Below are positions 9,197 through 26,964 of a stretch of DNA of 64,000 nt, one piece after another; the first letter of the stretch is position 1; every line of letters begins with the position of its first letter. Origin of the DNA: Escherichia coli. Its GTDB lineage: Bacteria; Pseudomonadota; Gammaproteobacteria; Enterobacterales; Enterobacteriaceae. The DNA lies in the NCBI RefSeq assembly GCF_030013205.1, contig NZ_CP122648.1; one strand, 5' to 3'. Below the pieces are notes generated by a model that was not told the DNA's origin, ran no database searches, and saw only the letters and a program-made list of their open reading frames with translations. The translations under genes and the position numbers were made by a program.

Positions 9197-11209
9197 TTAC
9201 AACACCTCGCGAACCGAGATCCCCAGACGCTGCATTCGTGACAGCAGCGTGGTGCGCTTCATCCCTAATCGTGTCGCCGCGCCACGGGGCCCGGCAACAA
9301 TGCCATTGGTTTCTCGCAATACCTGAACAATGCGCTGACGTTCTTCTTCGTCATTCTCTGGCGTCGTCGGATGCAGCAACTGTGCCATTGAACTGCGAAG
9401 CGCTGAATCTTCATTTAGCGTCGGCAGTAAACGGCTTTGTCGGACATTAAGATGTAAATTCAGACTGTTACCGCGAGTCAGTAGTACCGCCCGCTCAATC
9501 ACGTTTTCCAGCTCGCGCACGTTGCCCGGCCAGTCCCACGACATCAACTGGCGTAGCGCCTCGGTCGGGATGGCGTCAATTGCGCGATTCATATGGCGCG
9601 CCATTTTTTGCGTGAAATGTTTTGCTAAAAGAGGGATATCTTCCGGACGGTCGCGTAGCGGGGGCAATTCCAGTGGGAAGACATTCAGGCGATAAAAGAG
9701 ATCGCTGCGAAACTGGCGATCTTCAACCATTTGCCACAAATCACGGTTGGTGGCGGCAATGACTCTGACATTTACCGGGATCGTTCTACTCCCGCCGAGA
9801 CGCTCAATCTCCCGTTCCTGCAATACGCGCAGCAGTTTAGGCTGAAGTTCTAACGGCAGATCGCCAATTTCATCGAGAAACAACGTGCCGCCATCGGCAA
9901 TTTCAAAACGGCCACGATGGGTATTAATCGCACCAGTAAATGCCCCTTTGTCATGACCGAATAACTCACTTTCCAGAAGACTGGCGGGGATGGCAGCGCA
10001 GTTGATTTTGACCAGTGGCTTGTCGCGTCGTGGGCTAAGTTGATGGATCGCTCTGGCGATCACCTCTTTGCCGGTTCCGGTTTCACCACAAATCAACACC
10101 GTACTGTCGCTCTTCGCCACAATATCTACCTGCTGGAGCAAATCTTCCATTGCCTGGCTTTGATAGATAATGTCACCGACGCCCAGATTCGAAAGGAGCT
10201 GCTCGCTAAGCTGGTGGTTTTCTTGCTGCAAGCTTTCCTGCAAATCGGTCATGCTGCGCCAGGCATCGGCATTGCCAACGGCAATAGCGATGCGATCGGC
10301 AATATGTTGTAGTAGCTGGCAGTTTTCCTCACTAAAGAGAGTGGAAGAGGTATGCGCCAGCAACAATGCGCCCGGTGTATGGTTGCCAAAGGTGAGCGGT
10401 ATAAGGAGCGCAGATTCGCAGCCGTTAGATGCAAGTAAGTGTAATAACGGGTCGCGTTGCCAGAGAAACAGATCGTCTGCACGGTGCGTCAAGGTCGGTT
10501 GTCGGGTTTGTAGCGTTTGTGTCAGCAATACACTTTCGCCAGGCATACAGCGTGGCAGACACGCACAATGTGAGGCAGAAAGATCGCTGCACCACAGGCT
10601 GAACTTCTCGTTCTTTCGATGATCGCCCAGTACCATACTGACTGAAGCCAGACCGAAAAAATGATGGATCTCACGAGCGACGTCAGCGATCAGATCGTCG
10701 AGATCAAGATGTGACAACACTGCATTAGTGATATCCACCAGTACCCGATGATGATCGCGATCTTTCTCCAGCAAACGCAGCGCCACCTGCTGTTCTTCAT
10801 CATTGAGCCATGATTGCAGAACCGGAGTGATTATGTGTGCCAGCCAGTTAAACAGTGTGCAATCCTGGGGAGTAAAACGACTGCCGTGGGTGCGAATAAA
10901 GCGTAGCTCCGCCATTCCACTACTGCCGAGAAGGACGGCGTGGCGCGAATAATCGACCATCTCACCCTGATACTCTGTTGTTGCCGTCACATCGCTGCCA
11001 TCATCATGGTAGCGGTAATAGAAGTTGCTTTTGAGAACATGCAGTTCAATAAGTTGTACCGGGCTGAACGGCGGCGGCAGCGGGATGAAGGCGCGTAATA
11101 AAGACGCCTTGCCGTGTTTCTGCGCTAACCGCTCCGCGAGCATTCCGTTTACCGCTTCAATTGTTATTCCTTGCGGCGGGGCAAACATCGCCTCGTCTGA
11201 CATAGCCAT
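9197..11209 (-). CDS. hyfR: sigma-54-dependent transcriptional activator of hyf operon
   Basis: ~670 aa, GAF-like N-terminus, AAA+ with GETGTGKE and GAFTGA motifs, C-terminal HTH. Confidence 0.9.
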
Positions 11210-24291: not shown

Positions 24292-25326
24292 ATGGCTTAC
24301 TCTGTTCAAAAGTCGCGCCTGGCAAAGGTTGCGGGTGTTTCGCTTGTTTTATTACTCGCTGCCTGTAGTTCTGACTCACGCTATAAGCGTCAGGTCAGTG
24401 GTGATGAAGCCTACCTGGAAGCGGCACCGCTTGCGGAGCTTCATGCCCCGGCTGGAATGATTTTGCCGGTGACCTCCGGTGATTATGCAATCCCGGTGAC
24501 CAACGGTAGTGGTGCTGTCGGTAAGGCGCTGGACATTCGTCCACCAGCCCAGCCGCTGGCACTGGTTTCTGGCGCGCGTACCCAGTTCACGGGCGATACC
24601 GCTTCATTGCTGGTGGAAAATGGTCGTGGCAATACTCTGTGGCCGCAGGTGGTTAGCGTGCTGCAGGCGAAAAACTACACCATCACCCAACGTGATGATG
24701 CTGGTCAGACACTGACCACCGATTGGGTACAATGGAACCGTCTGGACGAAGACGAGCAGTATCGTGGTCGTTATCAAATCTCTGTTAAGCCGCAGGGTTA
24801 TCAGCAGGCGGTTACGGTTAAACTGCTGAACCTGGAACAGGCGGGCAAACCGGTTGCAGACGCGGCTTCCATGCAGCGTTACAGCACGGAGATGATGAAC
24901 GTTATTTCCGCCGGTCTGGATAAATCTGCCACTGACGCCGCGAACGCTGCGCAAAATCGTGCCTCCACCACTATGGACGTACAAAGTGCAGCTGATGACA
25001 CCGGTTTACCGATGCTGGTCGTACGCGGGCCGTTCAATGTGGTTTGGCAACGTCTGCCAGCGGCGCTGGAAAAAGTGGGCATGAAAGTGACCGACAGCAC
25101 CCGTTCGCAGGGCAACATGGCCGTAACTTACAAGCCGCTGTCTGACAGCGACTGGCAGGAACTGGGCGCGAGCGATCCAGGCCTGGCATCCGGTGACTAT
25201 AAACTGCAGGTTGGCGATTTAGATAACCGCAGCAGCCTACAGTTCATCGATCCGAAAGGTCATACTCTGACTCAGAGTCAGAACGACGCGCTGGTAGCTG
25301 TCTTCCAGGCTGCGTTTAGCAAGTAA
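24292..25326 (+). CDS. bamC: outer membrane protein assembly factor BamC (lipoprotein NlpB)
   Basis: 344 aa, lipobox LLAACSS. Confidence 0.93.
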
Positions 25327-25333
25327 AAATACA

Positions 25334-25360
25334 GGGCTGGAGTCATCCGGCCCTTTTTTT
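25334..25360 (+). terminator. rho-independent terminator after bamC
   Basis: Hairpin gggctgg-agtcat-ccggccc followed by T7. Confidence 0.65.
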
Positions 25361-25361
25361 G

Positions 25362-26070
25362 TGCACAGAAAACCCCCAGCTAGGCTGGGGGTTCCGGAAA
25401 GCTTTCAGCTTTGAGCCAGTTATTAAAACCCCTTTTGATTTGTTAAAACACCTTGCGGTCTGGCAACTGCAAGTGTCAAACAAGAAATCAAAAGGGGGTC
25501 CCAATGGGGAACGAAAAGAGCTTAGCGCACACCCGATGGAACTGTAAATATCACATAGTTTTTGCGCCAAAATACCGAAGACAGGTGTTCTACAGAGAGA
25601 AGCGTAGAGCAATAGGCAGTATTTTGAGAAAGCTGTGTGAGTGGAAAAGCGTACGGATTCTGGAAGCTGAATGCTGTGCAGATCATATCCATATGCTTGT
25701 GGAGATCCCGCCCAAAATGAGCGTATCCGGGTTTATGGGATATCTGAAAGGGAAAAGCAGTCTGATGCTTTACGAGCAGTTTGGTGATTTGAAATTCAAA
25801 TACAGGAACAGGGAGTTCTGGTGCAGAGGGTACTACGTCGATACAGTGGGTAAGAACACGGCGAAGATACAGGATTACATAAAGCACCAGCTTGAAGAGG
25901 ATAAAATGGGAGAGCAGTTATCGATTCCCTATCCGGGCAGCCCGTTTACGGGCCGTAAGTAACGAAGTTGGATGCAAATGTCAGATCGTGTGCGCCTGTT
26001 AGGGCGCGGCTGGTAAGAGAGCCTTATAGGCGCATTTGAAAAACCTCCGGCTATGCCGGAGGATATTTAT
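25362..26070 (+). mobile_element. IS200-family (IS200/IS605) insertion sequence, ~0.7 kb; boundaries approximate
   Basis: Perfect palindrome cccccagc-tag-gctggggg at 25373..25391, RBS-occluding pairing ccccttttgatt(25429..25440)/aatcaaaagggg(25486..25497), 152-aa Y1/HuH transposase, subterminal hairpin cctccggc-tat-gccggagg at 26044..26062. Confidence 0.8.
25504..25962 (+). CDS. tnpA: IS200 transposase TnpA (HuH Y1 family)
   Basis: 152 aa MGNEKSLAHTRWNCKYHIVFAPKYRR...HIHMLVEIPP (HuH motif)...catalytic Y region; ORF-track upstream extension discarded. Confidence 0.9.
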   Translation: MGNEKSLAHTRWNCKYHIVFAPKYRRQVFYREKRRAIGSILRKLCEWKSVRILEAECCADHIHMLVEIPPKMSVSGFMGYLKGKSSLMLYEQFGDLKFKYRNREFWCRGYYVDTVGKNTAKIQDYIKHQLEEDKMGEQLSIPYPGSPFTGRK

Positions 26071-26091
26071 TCTGATATGATACGCAAACGT

Positions 26092-26107
26092 GTGCGTCGG
26101 CAGAAAA
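26092..26107. promoter_or_regulatory. PurR operator (pur box) of purC
   Basis: ACGCAAACGTGTGCGT, near-perfect pur box, ~145 nt upstream of purC ATG. Confidence 0.7.
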
Positions 26108-26143
26108 ATGCGATTTTAGCGGTAATTCGCACAAAATTTGTTT

Positions 26144-26198
<55 letters not shown>

Positions 26199-26250
26199 AC
26201 CAGACAGCAAAAGATTTTAAAACGTTAATTCACACCCAGGAGTGATAAAG

Positions 26251-26964
26251 ATGCAAAAGCAAGCTGAGTTGTATCGTGGTAAAGCGAAAACCGTATACAG
26301 CACGGAAAACCCGGACCTGTTGGTGCTCGAATTCCGCAATGATACGTCAGCAGGGGATGGCGCGCGCATTGAGCAGTTTGATCGCAAAGGTATGGTGAAC
26401 AACAAGTTCAACTACTCCATTATGAGCAAACTGGCTGAAGCGGGTATCCCGACTCAAATGGAGCGTCTGCTCTCCGATACCGAATGTCTGGTGAAAAAGC
26501 TGGATATGGTGCCGGTTGAGTGTGTCGTGCGTAACCGTGCTGCTGGATCTCTGGTGAAACGTCTTGGAATCGAAGAAGGTATTGAGCTGAACCCACCGCT
26601 GTTCGATCTGTTCCTGAAAAACGACGCCATGCACGATCCGATGGTCAACGAATCTTACTGCGAAACCTTTGGCTGGGTGAGCAAAGAGAACCTGGCGCGT
26701 ATGAAAGAGCTGACCTACAAAGCGAACGACGTGCTGAAAAAACTGTTCGATGATGCTGGTCTGATTTTGGTCGACTTTAAACTGGAGTTTGGCCTGTACA
26801 AAGGTGAAGTGGTACTGGGCGATGAGTTCTCCCCGGACGGCAGCCGCCTGTGGGACAAAGAAACGCTGGAGAAAATGGACAAAGACCGTTTCCGCCAGAG
26901 CCTCGGTGGCCTGATCGAGGCCTATGAAGCCGTCGCCCGCCGCCTGGGTGTACAGCTGGACTGA
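26251..26964 (+). CDS. purC: phosphoribosylaminoimidazole-succinocarboxamide synthase (SAICAR synthetase)
   Basis: 237 aa starting [28 protein letters not shown]. Confidence 0.95.

Follow-up and report, generated by a model that had tools for sequence, protein, structure and literature searches.

The window analyzed here is a 64,000-nucleotide stretch of Escherichia coli DNA in which the genes dapA and bamC are followed by a 0.7-kb block and then by purC and ypfJ. The bamC stop codon (positions 25324-25326) is succeeded on the plus strand by the intrinsic terminator of that gene, which is host DNA and is found in K-12 too: a hairpin, GGGCTGGAGTCATCCGGCCC, at 25334 to 25353 (−14.8 kcal/mol) and a T-tract at 25354 to 25360. 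The purC gene lies on the same strand at 26251 to 26964, with its ATG at 26251. When we aligned the bamC-purC spacer with that of K-12 MG1655, the two were collinear save for one extra block, which adds 0.7 kb to the spacer of the window. The empty site in MG1655 is GGCCCTTTTTT/CTGATATGATACGCAAACG, the slash marking the insertion point, which lies directly 3′ of the T-run of the bamC terminator. The K-12 spacer thus reads ...CAGGGCTGGAATCATCCGGCCCTTTTTT/CTGATATGATACGCAAACGTGTGCGT..., and the extra DNA of the window sits exactly at the slash. A preliminary description of this DNA had placed an IS200-type element immediately after the bamC terminator and had supposed that K-12 carries no IS200 at this locus; the alignment bore out both points, since 711 bp present here are missing from the K-12 spacer. 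The T-tract is seven T residues long in the window; MG1655 and the strains 7CC and MEW have six, and we read this difference at the left junction as one of homopolymer length.

The element occupies positions 25361 to 26071 on the plus strand (711 bp), beginning GTGCACAG... and ending ...ATATTTATT, as determined by comparing occupied with empty sites. Four loci were compared in this way (bamC-purC, gyrB-yidB, pheP-ybdG, and deoD-hipH), and at all four exactly 711 bp were inserted 3′ of ...TT. A 709-bp core plus a 2-bp duplication of TT would account equally well for these boundaries. We favor the 711-bp reading because the chemistry of the IS200/IS605 family produces no target duplication and inserts the element 3′ of a tetra- or pentanucleotide (PMC7290912, PMC2806898). 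The last five bases of the T-tract, TTTTT, would then be the target and left cleavage pentanucleotide, and TTATT, the final five bases of the element, would be the right cleavage site. The end of the element had earlier been put at 26110, a position that takes in 39 nt of host DNA beyond 26071. The two ends are not inverted repeats of each other, and there is a subterminal hairpin at either end.

The element has room for one open reading frame, and both the list of open reading frames and the RefSeq annotation show tnpA alone, without tnpB or iscB. The tnpA gene (25504 to 25962, plus strand) encodes a 152-amino-acid HUH/Y1 transposase with the motif H61-I-H63 and with Tyr125 as its catalytic residue; in Salmonella IS200 TnpA, Y125F is the catalytically dead mutant (PMC4513863). 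The protein matched Pfam Y1_Tnp (4.4e-38) and the NCBIfam equivalog transpos_IS200 (NF033573; 147.7 bits against a cutoff of 55), and it aligned with the solved structures 2EC2, 2A6M (IS608, 3.9e-19), and 2XM3 (ISDra2, 1.9e-16). Its match to NCBIfam REP_Tyr_transpos was weak, at 32 bits, far under the cutoff of 80. RefSeq labels the identical protein at bamC-purC, WP_000526135.1, “IS200/IS605-like element IS200C family transposase.” The IS200-family identity proposed in the preliminary description was therefore supported on every count that could be tested, by Pfam, NCBIfam, Rfam (see below), and PDB matches and by the RefSeq label, the name IS200C itself being the protein name given by the NCBI pipeline. 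Positions 25361 to 26071 are an intact copy of IS200C, a well-known small mobile element of the IS200 group of the IS200/IS605 family.

The left end carries a perfect palindrome, AACCCCCAGC-TAG-GCTGGGGGTT, at 25371 to 25393 on the plus strand, with a 10-bp stem and a 3-nt loop. It occurs once in the 64 kb and was absent from shuffled sequence, and it is presumably the left hairpin bound by TnpA. Just 5′ of the hairpin core lies GAAAA (25368 to 25372, plus strand), a candidate guide for a T-rich target. Barabas et al. reportedly found in 2008, working on IS608, that short guides beside the hairpins form base pairs with the cleavage site and the target site; by analogy with that mechanism, GAAAA would pair with the T-rich target. 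The right end (26039 to 26071, plus strand) consists of an A-run at 26039 to 26043, a hairpin, CCTCCGGC-TAT-GCCGGAGG, at 26044 to 26062, and the tail ATATTTATT at 26063 to 26071. Terminator scoring found this region to be terminator-like on both strands. Farther in, an imperfect inverted repeat with 13-nt arms that are 85% complementary spans 25991 to 26034 on the plus strand. An Rfam match of the right-end hairpin to Ysr202 was sub-threshold and was set aside as generic terminator similarity.

Between the left palindrome and tnpA, a 5′ untranslated region (5′ UTR) stem-loop spans 25429 to 25497 on the plus strand. Its arms (25429-25444 and 25482-25497) cover the Shine-Dalgarno sequence AAGGGGGT at 25492 to 25499, just 5′ of the ATG at 25504. 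The 122-nt leader has a minimum free energy of −40.4 kcal/mol (z = −4.6), and none of 200 shuffled sequences folded equally well. The palindrome and the stem-loop together matched Rfam RF01405 (STnc490) at 25371 to 25494 over the full length of the model, with a score of 146.4 bits against a gathering threshold of 56 (E = 3e-31). This match lies on the plus strand, the sense strand of tnpA, though art200 has been described as antisense. On the minus strand, a putative feature at 25423 to 25512 is placed by homology to Salmonella IS200 only (PMC4513863). The perfect left-end palindrome, the long-range pairing over the tnpA ribosome-binding site, the 152-amino-acid HuH Y1 transposase, and the right-end hairpin had all been noticed in the preliminary description, and each was recovered at the coordinates given here.

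We then looked across 5,426 complete E. coli genomes. The bamC flank is single-copy in 5,425 of them, and only 19 carry the element at bamC-purC, so this is not DNA present at the locus in all E. coli, the alternative that the preliminary description had raised against its own reading. Seventeen of the 19 carriers are pig isolates (ETEC, O139:H1) that match at 99.5 to 100% identity, and one pig isolate, K_EC180, is 99.99% identical to the window over 50 kb. The other two carriers are 7CC and MEW. 7CC is a mink isolate, and MEW came from an ivory gull. The copies in these two strains are separated from the window copy by 4 to 5 single-nucleotide polymorphisms inside IS200C and a single T of the tract, and their sequences fit either a second insertion at the same nucleotide or an old shared insertion. 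The insertion at bamC-purC marks a strain lineage, that of pig ETEC O139:H1, along with a few other strains. IS200C, the family to which it belongs, and its regulation are already known, as is this very insertion, which is annotated in the 19 RefSeq genomes.

Elsewhere in the same genomes, IS200C is widespread: matches were found at 10,734 places in 3,096 genomes, and 2,063 of the 5,426 genomes had a match over at least 80% of the element. All 712 queried bases were identical in copies at unrelated loci in other genomes, and K-12 has empty sites. Full-length copies that are 100% identical at unrelated loci in unrelated strains point to recent spread. IS200 is notoriously inactive in the laboratory (PMC4513863), which might suggest that the present copy is a relic no longer able to move. 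We consider this very unlikely, given that the tnpA reading frame is intact with its HUH motif and Tyr125, that both ends of the element are complete, and that full-length copies elsewhere in unrelated strains are 100% identical to it.

Downstream of the element, the 16-bp PurR operator of purC, ACGCAAACGTGTGCGT, is intact at 26082 to 26097 on the plus strand. It is the reverse complement of the purC site defined by chromatin immunoprecipitation, ACGCACACGTTTGCGT (PMC3159470). In the preliminary description the operator stood at 26092 to 26107, which is 10 nt off, and was separated from the element by 20 to 25 nt; the actual gap is 10 nt, CTGATATGAT. A REP element lies in the purC leader at about 26154 to 26198. 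An Rfam match to naRNA4 at those positions was sub-threshold and was rejected as REP similarity. From CTGATATGAT onward, the operator, the leader, and purC itself are organized as in K-12. Taken literally, the statement that the insertion displaces whatever lay upstream of the purC operator holds; the PurR box is as before, and so is all the sequence 3′ of CTGATATGAT. Upstream of CTGATATGAT, K-12 has ...CCGGCCCTTTTTT where the window has ...CCGGAGGATATTTATT, and both consist of a GC hairpin and a T-rich tail. The hairpin and T-run of the K-12 terminator have in effect been swapped for the right-end hairpin and ATATTTATT at the same distance from purC. Transcription arriving from bamC now faces three hairpins, where formerly it faced one. 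The purC gene had been called essential; it is so conditionally, for purine prototrophy, and not outright.

Since the insertion altered neither the operator nor anything else from CTGATATGAT onward, leader and gene included, it would most likely have little or no effect on purC. The case for a measurable effect on purC expression or regulation turns on an extended −10-like motif, TGATATGAT, at 26073 to 26081 on the plus strand, which we recognized from its sequence and which is identical in K-12. It abuts the PurR box and lies just downstream of the insertion point, the junction being 1 nt upstream of its TG. If TGATATGAT is a promoter, its entire −35 region has been exchanged for element DNA, and purC may be affected, either through loss of −35 and UP sequences upstream of position −14 or through read-through from, or hairpin effects of, the right end. 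He et al. reportedly stated in 1990 that pur operators overlap their promoters, which would favor such an effect, as would the closeness of the junction to the PurR box (10 nt) and the presence of PurC F56S in the same lineage. The consensus scan of 25200 to 26300, which covered both strands and both native and hybrid combinations, found no two-hexamer sigma-70-like promoter, and we found no purC transcription start site in the literature searched. With no site in that scan, a hybrid promoter directed outward was also discounted; TTGAAA at 26036 to 26041 is 34 nt from TATGAT, which is too far. The insertion created no two-hexamer promoter-like site, the lost sequence is mimicked by a hairpin and T-rich tail at the same spacing, and the architecture of the operator and downstream region is that of K-12. 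Two other strains have also kept the insertion, as have related pig isolates, at least 17 in number and drawn from several collections, and since it persists in a successful pathogen lineage, a sizeable effect is improbable. On balance we regard a measurable change at purC as distinctly unlikely. It would matter if it occurred, as a shift of purC expression or of PurR control in a pathogen lineage.

Several layers of silencing have been described for Salmonella IS200: a weak tnpA promoter near nt 40, a left-end terminator, a stem-loop masking the Shine-Dalgarno sequence, Hfq, and art200 (PMC4513863). The palindrome at nt 12 to 34 of that element is a bidirectional terminator that stops incoming transcription (PMC4513863). 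Judging from the conservation of these parts, the same layers may apply to the copy in the window. It would be almost silent, with a host terminator upstream, its own terminator palindrome at the left end, a 5′ UTR stem-loop that hides the ribosome-binding site, and, by homology, the antisense RNA art200. We conclude that the locus very probably holds an IS200C copy that inserted as single-stranded DNA behind the bamC terminator, is almost silent, and has little or no consequence for purC. As far as the locus itself is concerned, the preliminary description was correct, an ordinary finding with small errors in its coordinates. What merits a note is the pattern of terminator targeting.

By the mechanism established for the family, the element would move as single-stranded DNA and would insert, without target duplication, 3′ of a short target on the lagging-strand template. 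The target here would be the TTTTT with which the intrinsic terminator of bamC ends. Elements of the IS200/IS605 family are known to be biased toward the lagging-strand template (PMC5371812). The net GC skew of the window is positive, which makes the plus strand the lagging-strand template. At the four loci compared, the genes upstream of the element, bamC, gyrB, pheP, and deoD, run with the replication fork (by their K-12 strands and the position of oriC). The orientation at these four loci and the GC skew are thus consistent with the reported bias.

The other E. coli loci have the same layout. At 12 of 12 loci the gene upstream has the same orientation as tnpA, and a terminator touches the element. 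At the eleven other E. coli IS200C loci, the upstream gene ends 35 to 65 bp before the element; at the cspB locus the annotated gene ends some 300 bp upstream (L007), and a terminator-like hairpin still adjoins the element. The placement at bamC is not accidental; it fits a habit of the element of landing directly behind transcription terminators.

We extended this comparison with a census of junctions, scanning for the core of the left-end palindrome with one genome per species, and obtained at least 95 distinct left junctions. The hosts, among the matches listed, included Yersinia pestis (IS1541), Vibrio, Brenneria, Edwardsiella, Oxalobacter, Sutterella, E. coli, Mailhella/Desulfovibrio, Bacillota, Elusimicrobia, and others. 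Among these matches, 90 of 95 left junctions passed a test for a hairpin followed by a T-tail, and a hairpin was still visible at four of the five that failed. The T-tails at the listed junctions were 4 to 11 nt long, with a mode of 6 to 7, and the consensus of the left flank over the 95 listed junctions was T (96%), T (86%), N, T (99%), T (100%). As controls we used TTNTT sites in one annotated 50-kb E. coli region, of which 11% (intergenic) and 19% (coding) passed the same test. With the cutoff at a ΔG of −12 kcal/mol or below, 67% of the junctions among the matches listed passed, against 0.9% of the intergenic controls (P = 6.5e-28), junction copies that share a genome not being independent of one another.

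Hairpins were called with a detector that enumerates them, applied alike to junctions and controls. Two other detectors were tried and rejected. One that required perfect stems (59 of 95 among the matches listed) was blind to obvious terminators, that of bamC included, owing to G-T pairs and mismatches. In the other, based on the global minimum free energy (51 of 95 among the matches listed), upstream A-runs paired with the T-tail.

The element itself echoes what it lands behind. Its own final bases, TTATT, match the target consensus TTNTT. Just 5′ of the left hairpin there is a conserved GAAAA, and just 5′ of the right hairpin there is an A-run; each of the 16 leader classes among the 95 junctions listed has (G)AAA(A/C)C ahead of the palindrome. 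In Y. pestis, tandem IS1541 copies have the right end of one joined to the left end of the next, ...GGAGGATATTTATT/GTGCCCAG..., so that the next copy begins directly on ...ATATTTATT (L121, L122, and L124). The top strand of the element is always on the strand that carries the T-tract. By analogy with the guide pairing described above, the A-runs may read the T-rich site, and the transposase may see a terminator as a right end.

These observations suggest a general rule for the IS200 group, which we offer tentatively as a possibility that still falls short of probable. The target would be structure specific, namely, the hairpin and T-tail (TTNTT) of an intrinsic terminator on the lagging-strand template, chosen because it mimics a right end and because GAAAA pairs with the T-tract. 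The rule would cover IS200, IS200C, IS1541, and their relatives with a CCCCAGCTAGGCTGGGG left hairpin in Proteobacteria, Desulfovibrionaceae, Bacillota, Elusimicrobia, and others. If true, it would account for both the location and the silence of the element, every copy sitting behind two terminators, and it would predict the landing sites of very widespread elements and give a mechanistic reason for their dormancy. The targeting pattern is probably a further layer of silencing, in that it leaves every copy downstream of a host terminator and with its tnpA directed away from that terminator.

The association with terminators has been reported at least in part before: a 2026 preprint described an enrichment of terminator-like sequences immediately upstream of IS200/IS605 elements, interpreted there as limiting expression. 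The literature that we searched, which did not take in the older IS200 and IS1541 papers, contained no statement of an IS200 target, nor of a rule that the target is a TTNTT following a hairpin.

The pattern could also arise by survivorship, with IS200C inserting at any single-stranded TTNTT and only the harmless copies behind terminators persisting. TTNTT is very frequent, insertions in genes and promoters would be selected against, and all of our data come from natural, fixed copies. We nevertheless think this explanation unlikely. Intergenic TTNTT sites pass the hairpin test in 11% of cases (0.9% by the strict cutoff), against 95% (67%) of the junctions among the matches listed. Survivorship is also hard to square with an element that always lies directly on the T-tail, its top strand always on the T-tract strand, and with new copies in Y. 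pestis placed immediately against another copy's right end, itself a hairpin followed by TTATT.

Comparison with known systems places the element closest to the prototype IS200 of Salmonella enterica (707 bp). Both have a single tnpA encoding a 152-amino-acid Y1 transposase with catalytic Tyr125, and the published palindrome (nt 12 to 34) and Shine-Dalgarno stem-loop (nt 69 to 138) of the Salmonella element (PMC4513863) correspond to nt 12 to 34 and 70 to 138 in the window if position 25360, where the inserted block starts, is taken as nt 1. The STnc490/art200 region is shared as well, this copy scoring 146 bits against the Rfam model. Set beside the published description, the window copy differs in being the E. 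coli variant that NCBI names IS200C and in being 711 rather than 707 bp long.

IS1541 of Y. pestis and Yersinia pseudotuberculosis resembles IS200C in its left-end palindrome, in a leader that is almost identical (GTGCCCAGAAAAC versus GTGCACAGAAAAC), in its right end, ...CCTCCGGCTATGCCGGAGGATATTTATT, and in its placement behind terminator-like hairpins (L120 to L135). It differs in its host, its much higher copy number, and its tandem copies. Some genes, pheL-pheA among them, are disrupted or separated by IS1541 (PMC3082878).

IS608 of Helicobacter pylori and ISDra2 of Deinococcus have a homologous TnpA and subterminal hairpins and lack terminal inverted repeats; they insert 3′ of a short target on the lagging-strand template without duplicating it, as IS200C would. 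Unlike IS200C, they also carry tnpB, and their targets, TTAC and TTGAT, have no reported need for a neighboring hairpin, whereas the target of IS200C is T-rich (TTNTT) and almost always lies 3′ of a hairpin. Class C (IIC) group II introns also insert just downstream of the stem-loops of intrinsic terminators, which they recognize by structure together with a short sequence. These are retroelements with a ribozyme and a reverse transcriptase, and the likeness to IS200C is one of resemblance only. Finally, the RAYT (TnpA-REP) proteins form a related clade of Y1 HUH enzymes that act on hairpin-forming extragenic repeats (PMC3333891); in contrast to a single-locus REPtron, the element described here is a discrete, multicopy insertion sequence.

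A host terminator-like hairpin with a T-tail ending TTNTT adjoins the IS200-type element in 90 of 95 junctions among the matches listed, which comprise E. coli loci carrying IS200C (L003 and L006-L015), palindrome-bearing loci from other taxa (L016-L135), and the window itself (25334-25360). Of the intergenic TTNTT control sites, 11% had the same setting. An annotated gene ends just upstream at 11 of the 12 E. coli IS200C loci, and at each of these 11 tnpA points in the same direction as that gene. The T-tract of the bamC terminator (window 25354-25360) has seven T residues in the window and in the near-identical isolate K_EC180, versus six in K-12 strain MG1655, which has an empty site, and in 7CC and MEW, two other carriers of IS200C between bamC and purC.

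In Yersinia pestis NCTC5923, the IS200-type element IS1541 occurs in tandem, with the right end of one copy abutting the left end of the next at the junction ...CCGGAGGATATTTATT|GTGCCCAGAAAAC (L121, position ~349; L122, minus strand, ~3116; L124, minus strand, ~2043). The element's own right end has therefore been used as an insertion target.

Among the matches listed from L016-L135, the core of the left-end palindrome is identical base for base in distant phyla (Proteobacteria, Desulfovibrionaceae, Bacillota, Elusimicrobia, and Saccharibacteria MAGs), while the preceding 8 nt differ by class. Such conservation across phyla points to either strong constraint or horizontal spread. The same 17-nt palindrome, CCCCAGCTAGGCTGGGG, also occurs in a second context, followed by ATG(C/T)TTATT and a variable flank, in Ruminococcus and other Bacillota/Elusimicrobia MAGs (L099-L109, L035, L036, L077, and L096); four of these loci (L099, L100, L105, and L106) have AATAAGCATC 5' of the palindrome. 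In this setting the palindrome resembles a right-end hairpin belonging to another class of element.

Window positions 1-50002 are 99.99% identical to K_EC180 (L141), with one mismatch and three gap openings across 50 kb. K_EC180 came from pig faeces in South Korea, and the window probably derives from the same pig ETEC/O139:H1-related lineage. In K_EC180, hyfD is an annotated pseudogene with an internal stop; the longest window ORF at that position (~16907-18347, minus strand) is only 328 aa.

Codon 56 of purC (window 26416-26418) is TCC (Ser) in the window and K_EC180 (PurC, WP_063085336.1) versus TTC (Phe) in MG1655, 7CC, and MEW (WP_001295467.1), so that one lineage has both the upstream IS and PurC F56S. 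The ~150-nt purC leader contains a REP-type palindrome (window ~26140-26200), which K-12 shares; its match to naRNA4 was subthreshold (38 bits versus 59.5).

The Rfam STnc490 model matched window 25371-25494 on the tnpA sense strand, whereas STnc490, since renamed art200, has been described as antisense to the tnpA 5'UTR (PMC4513863). The Rfam match thus marks the region and not necessarily the transcribed strand.
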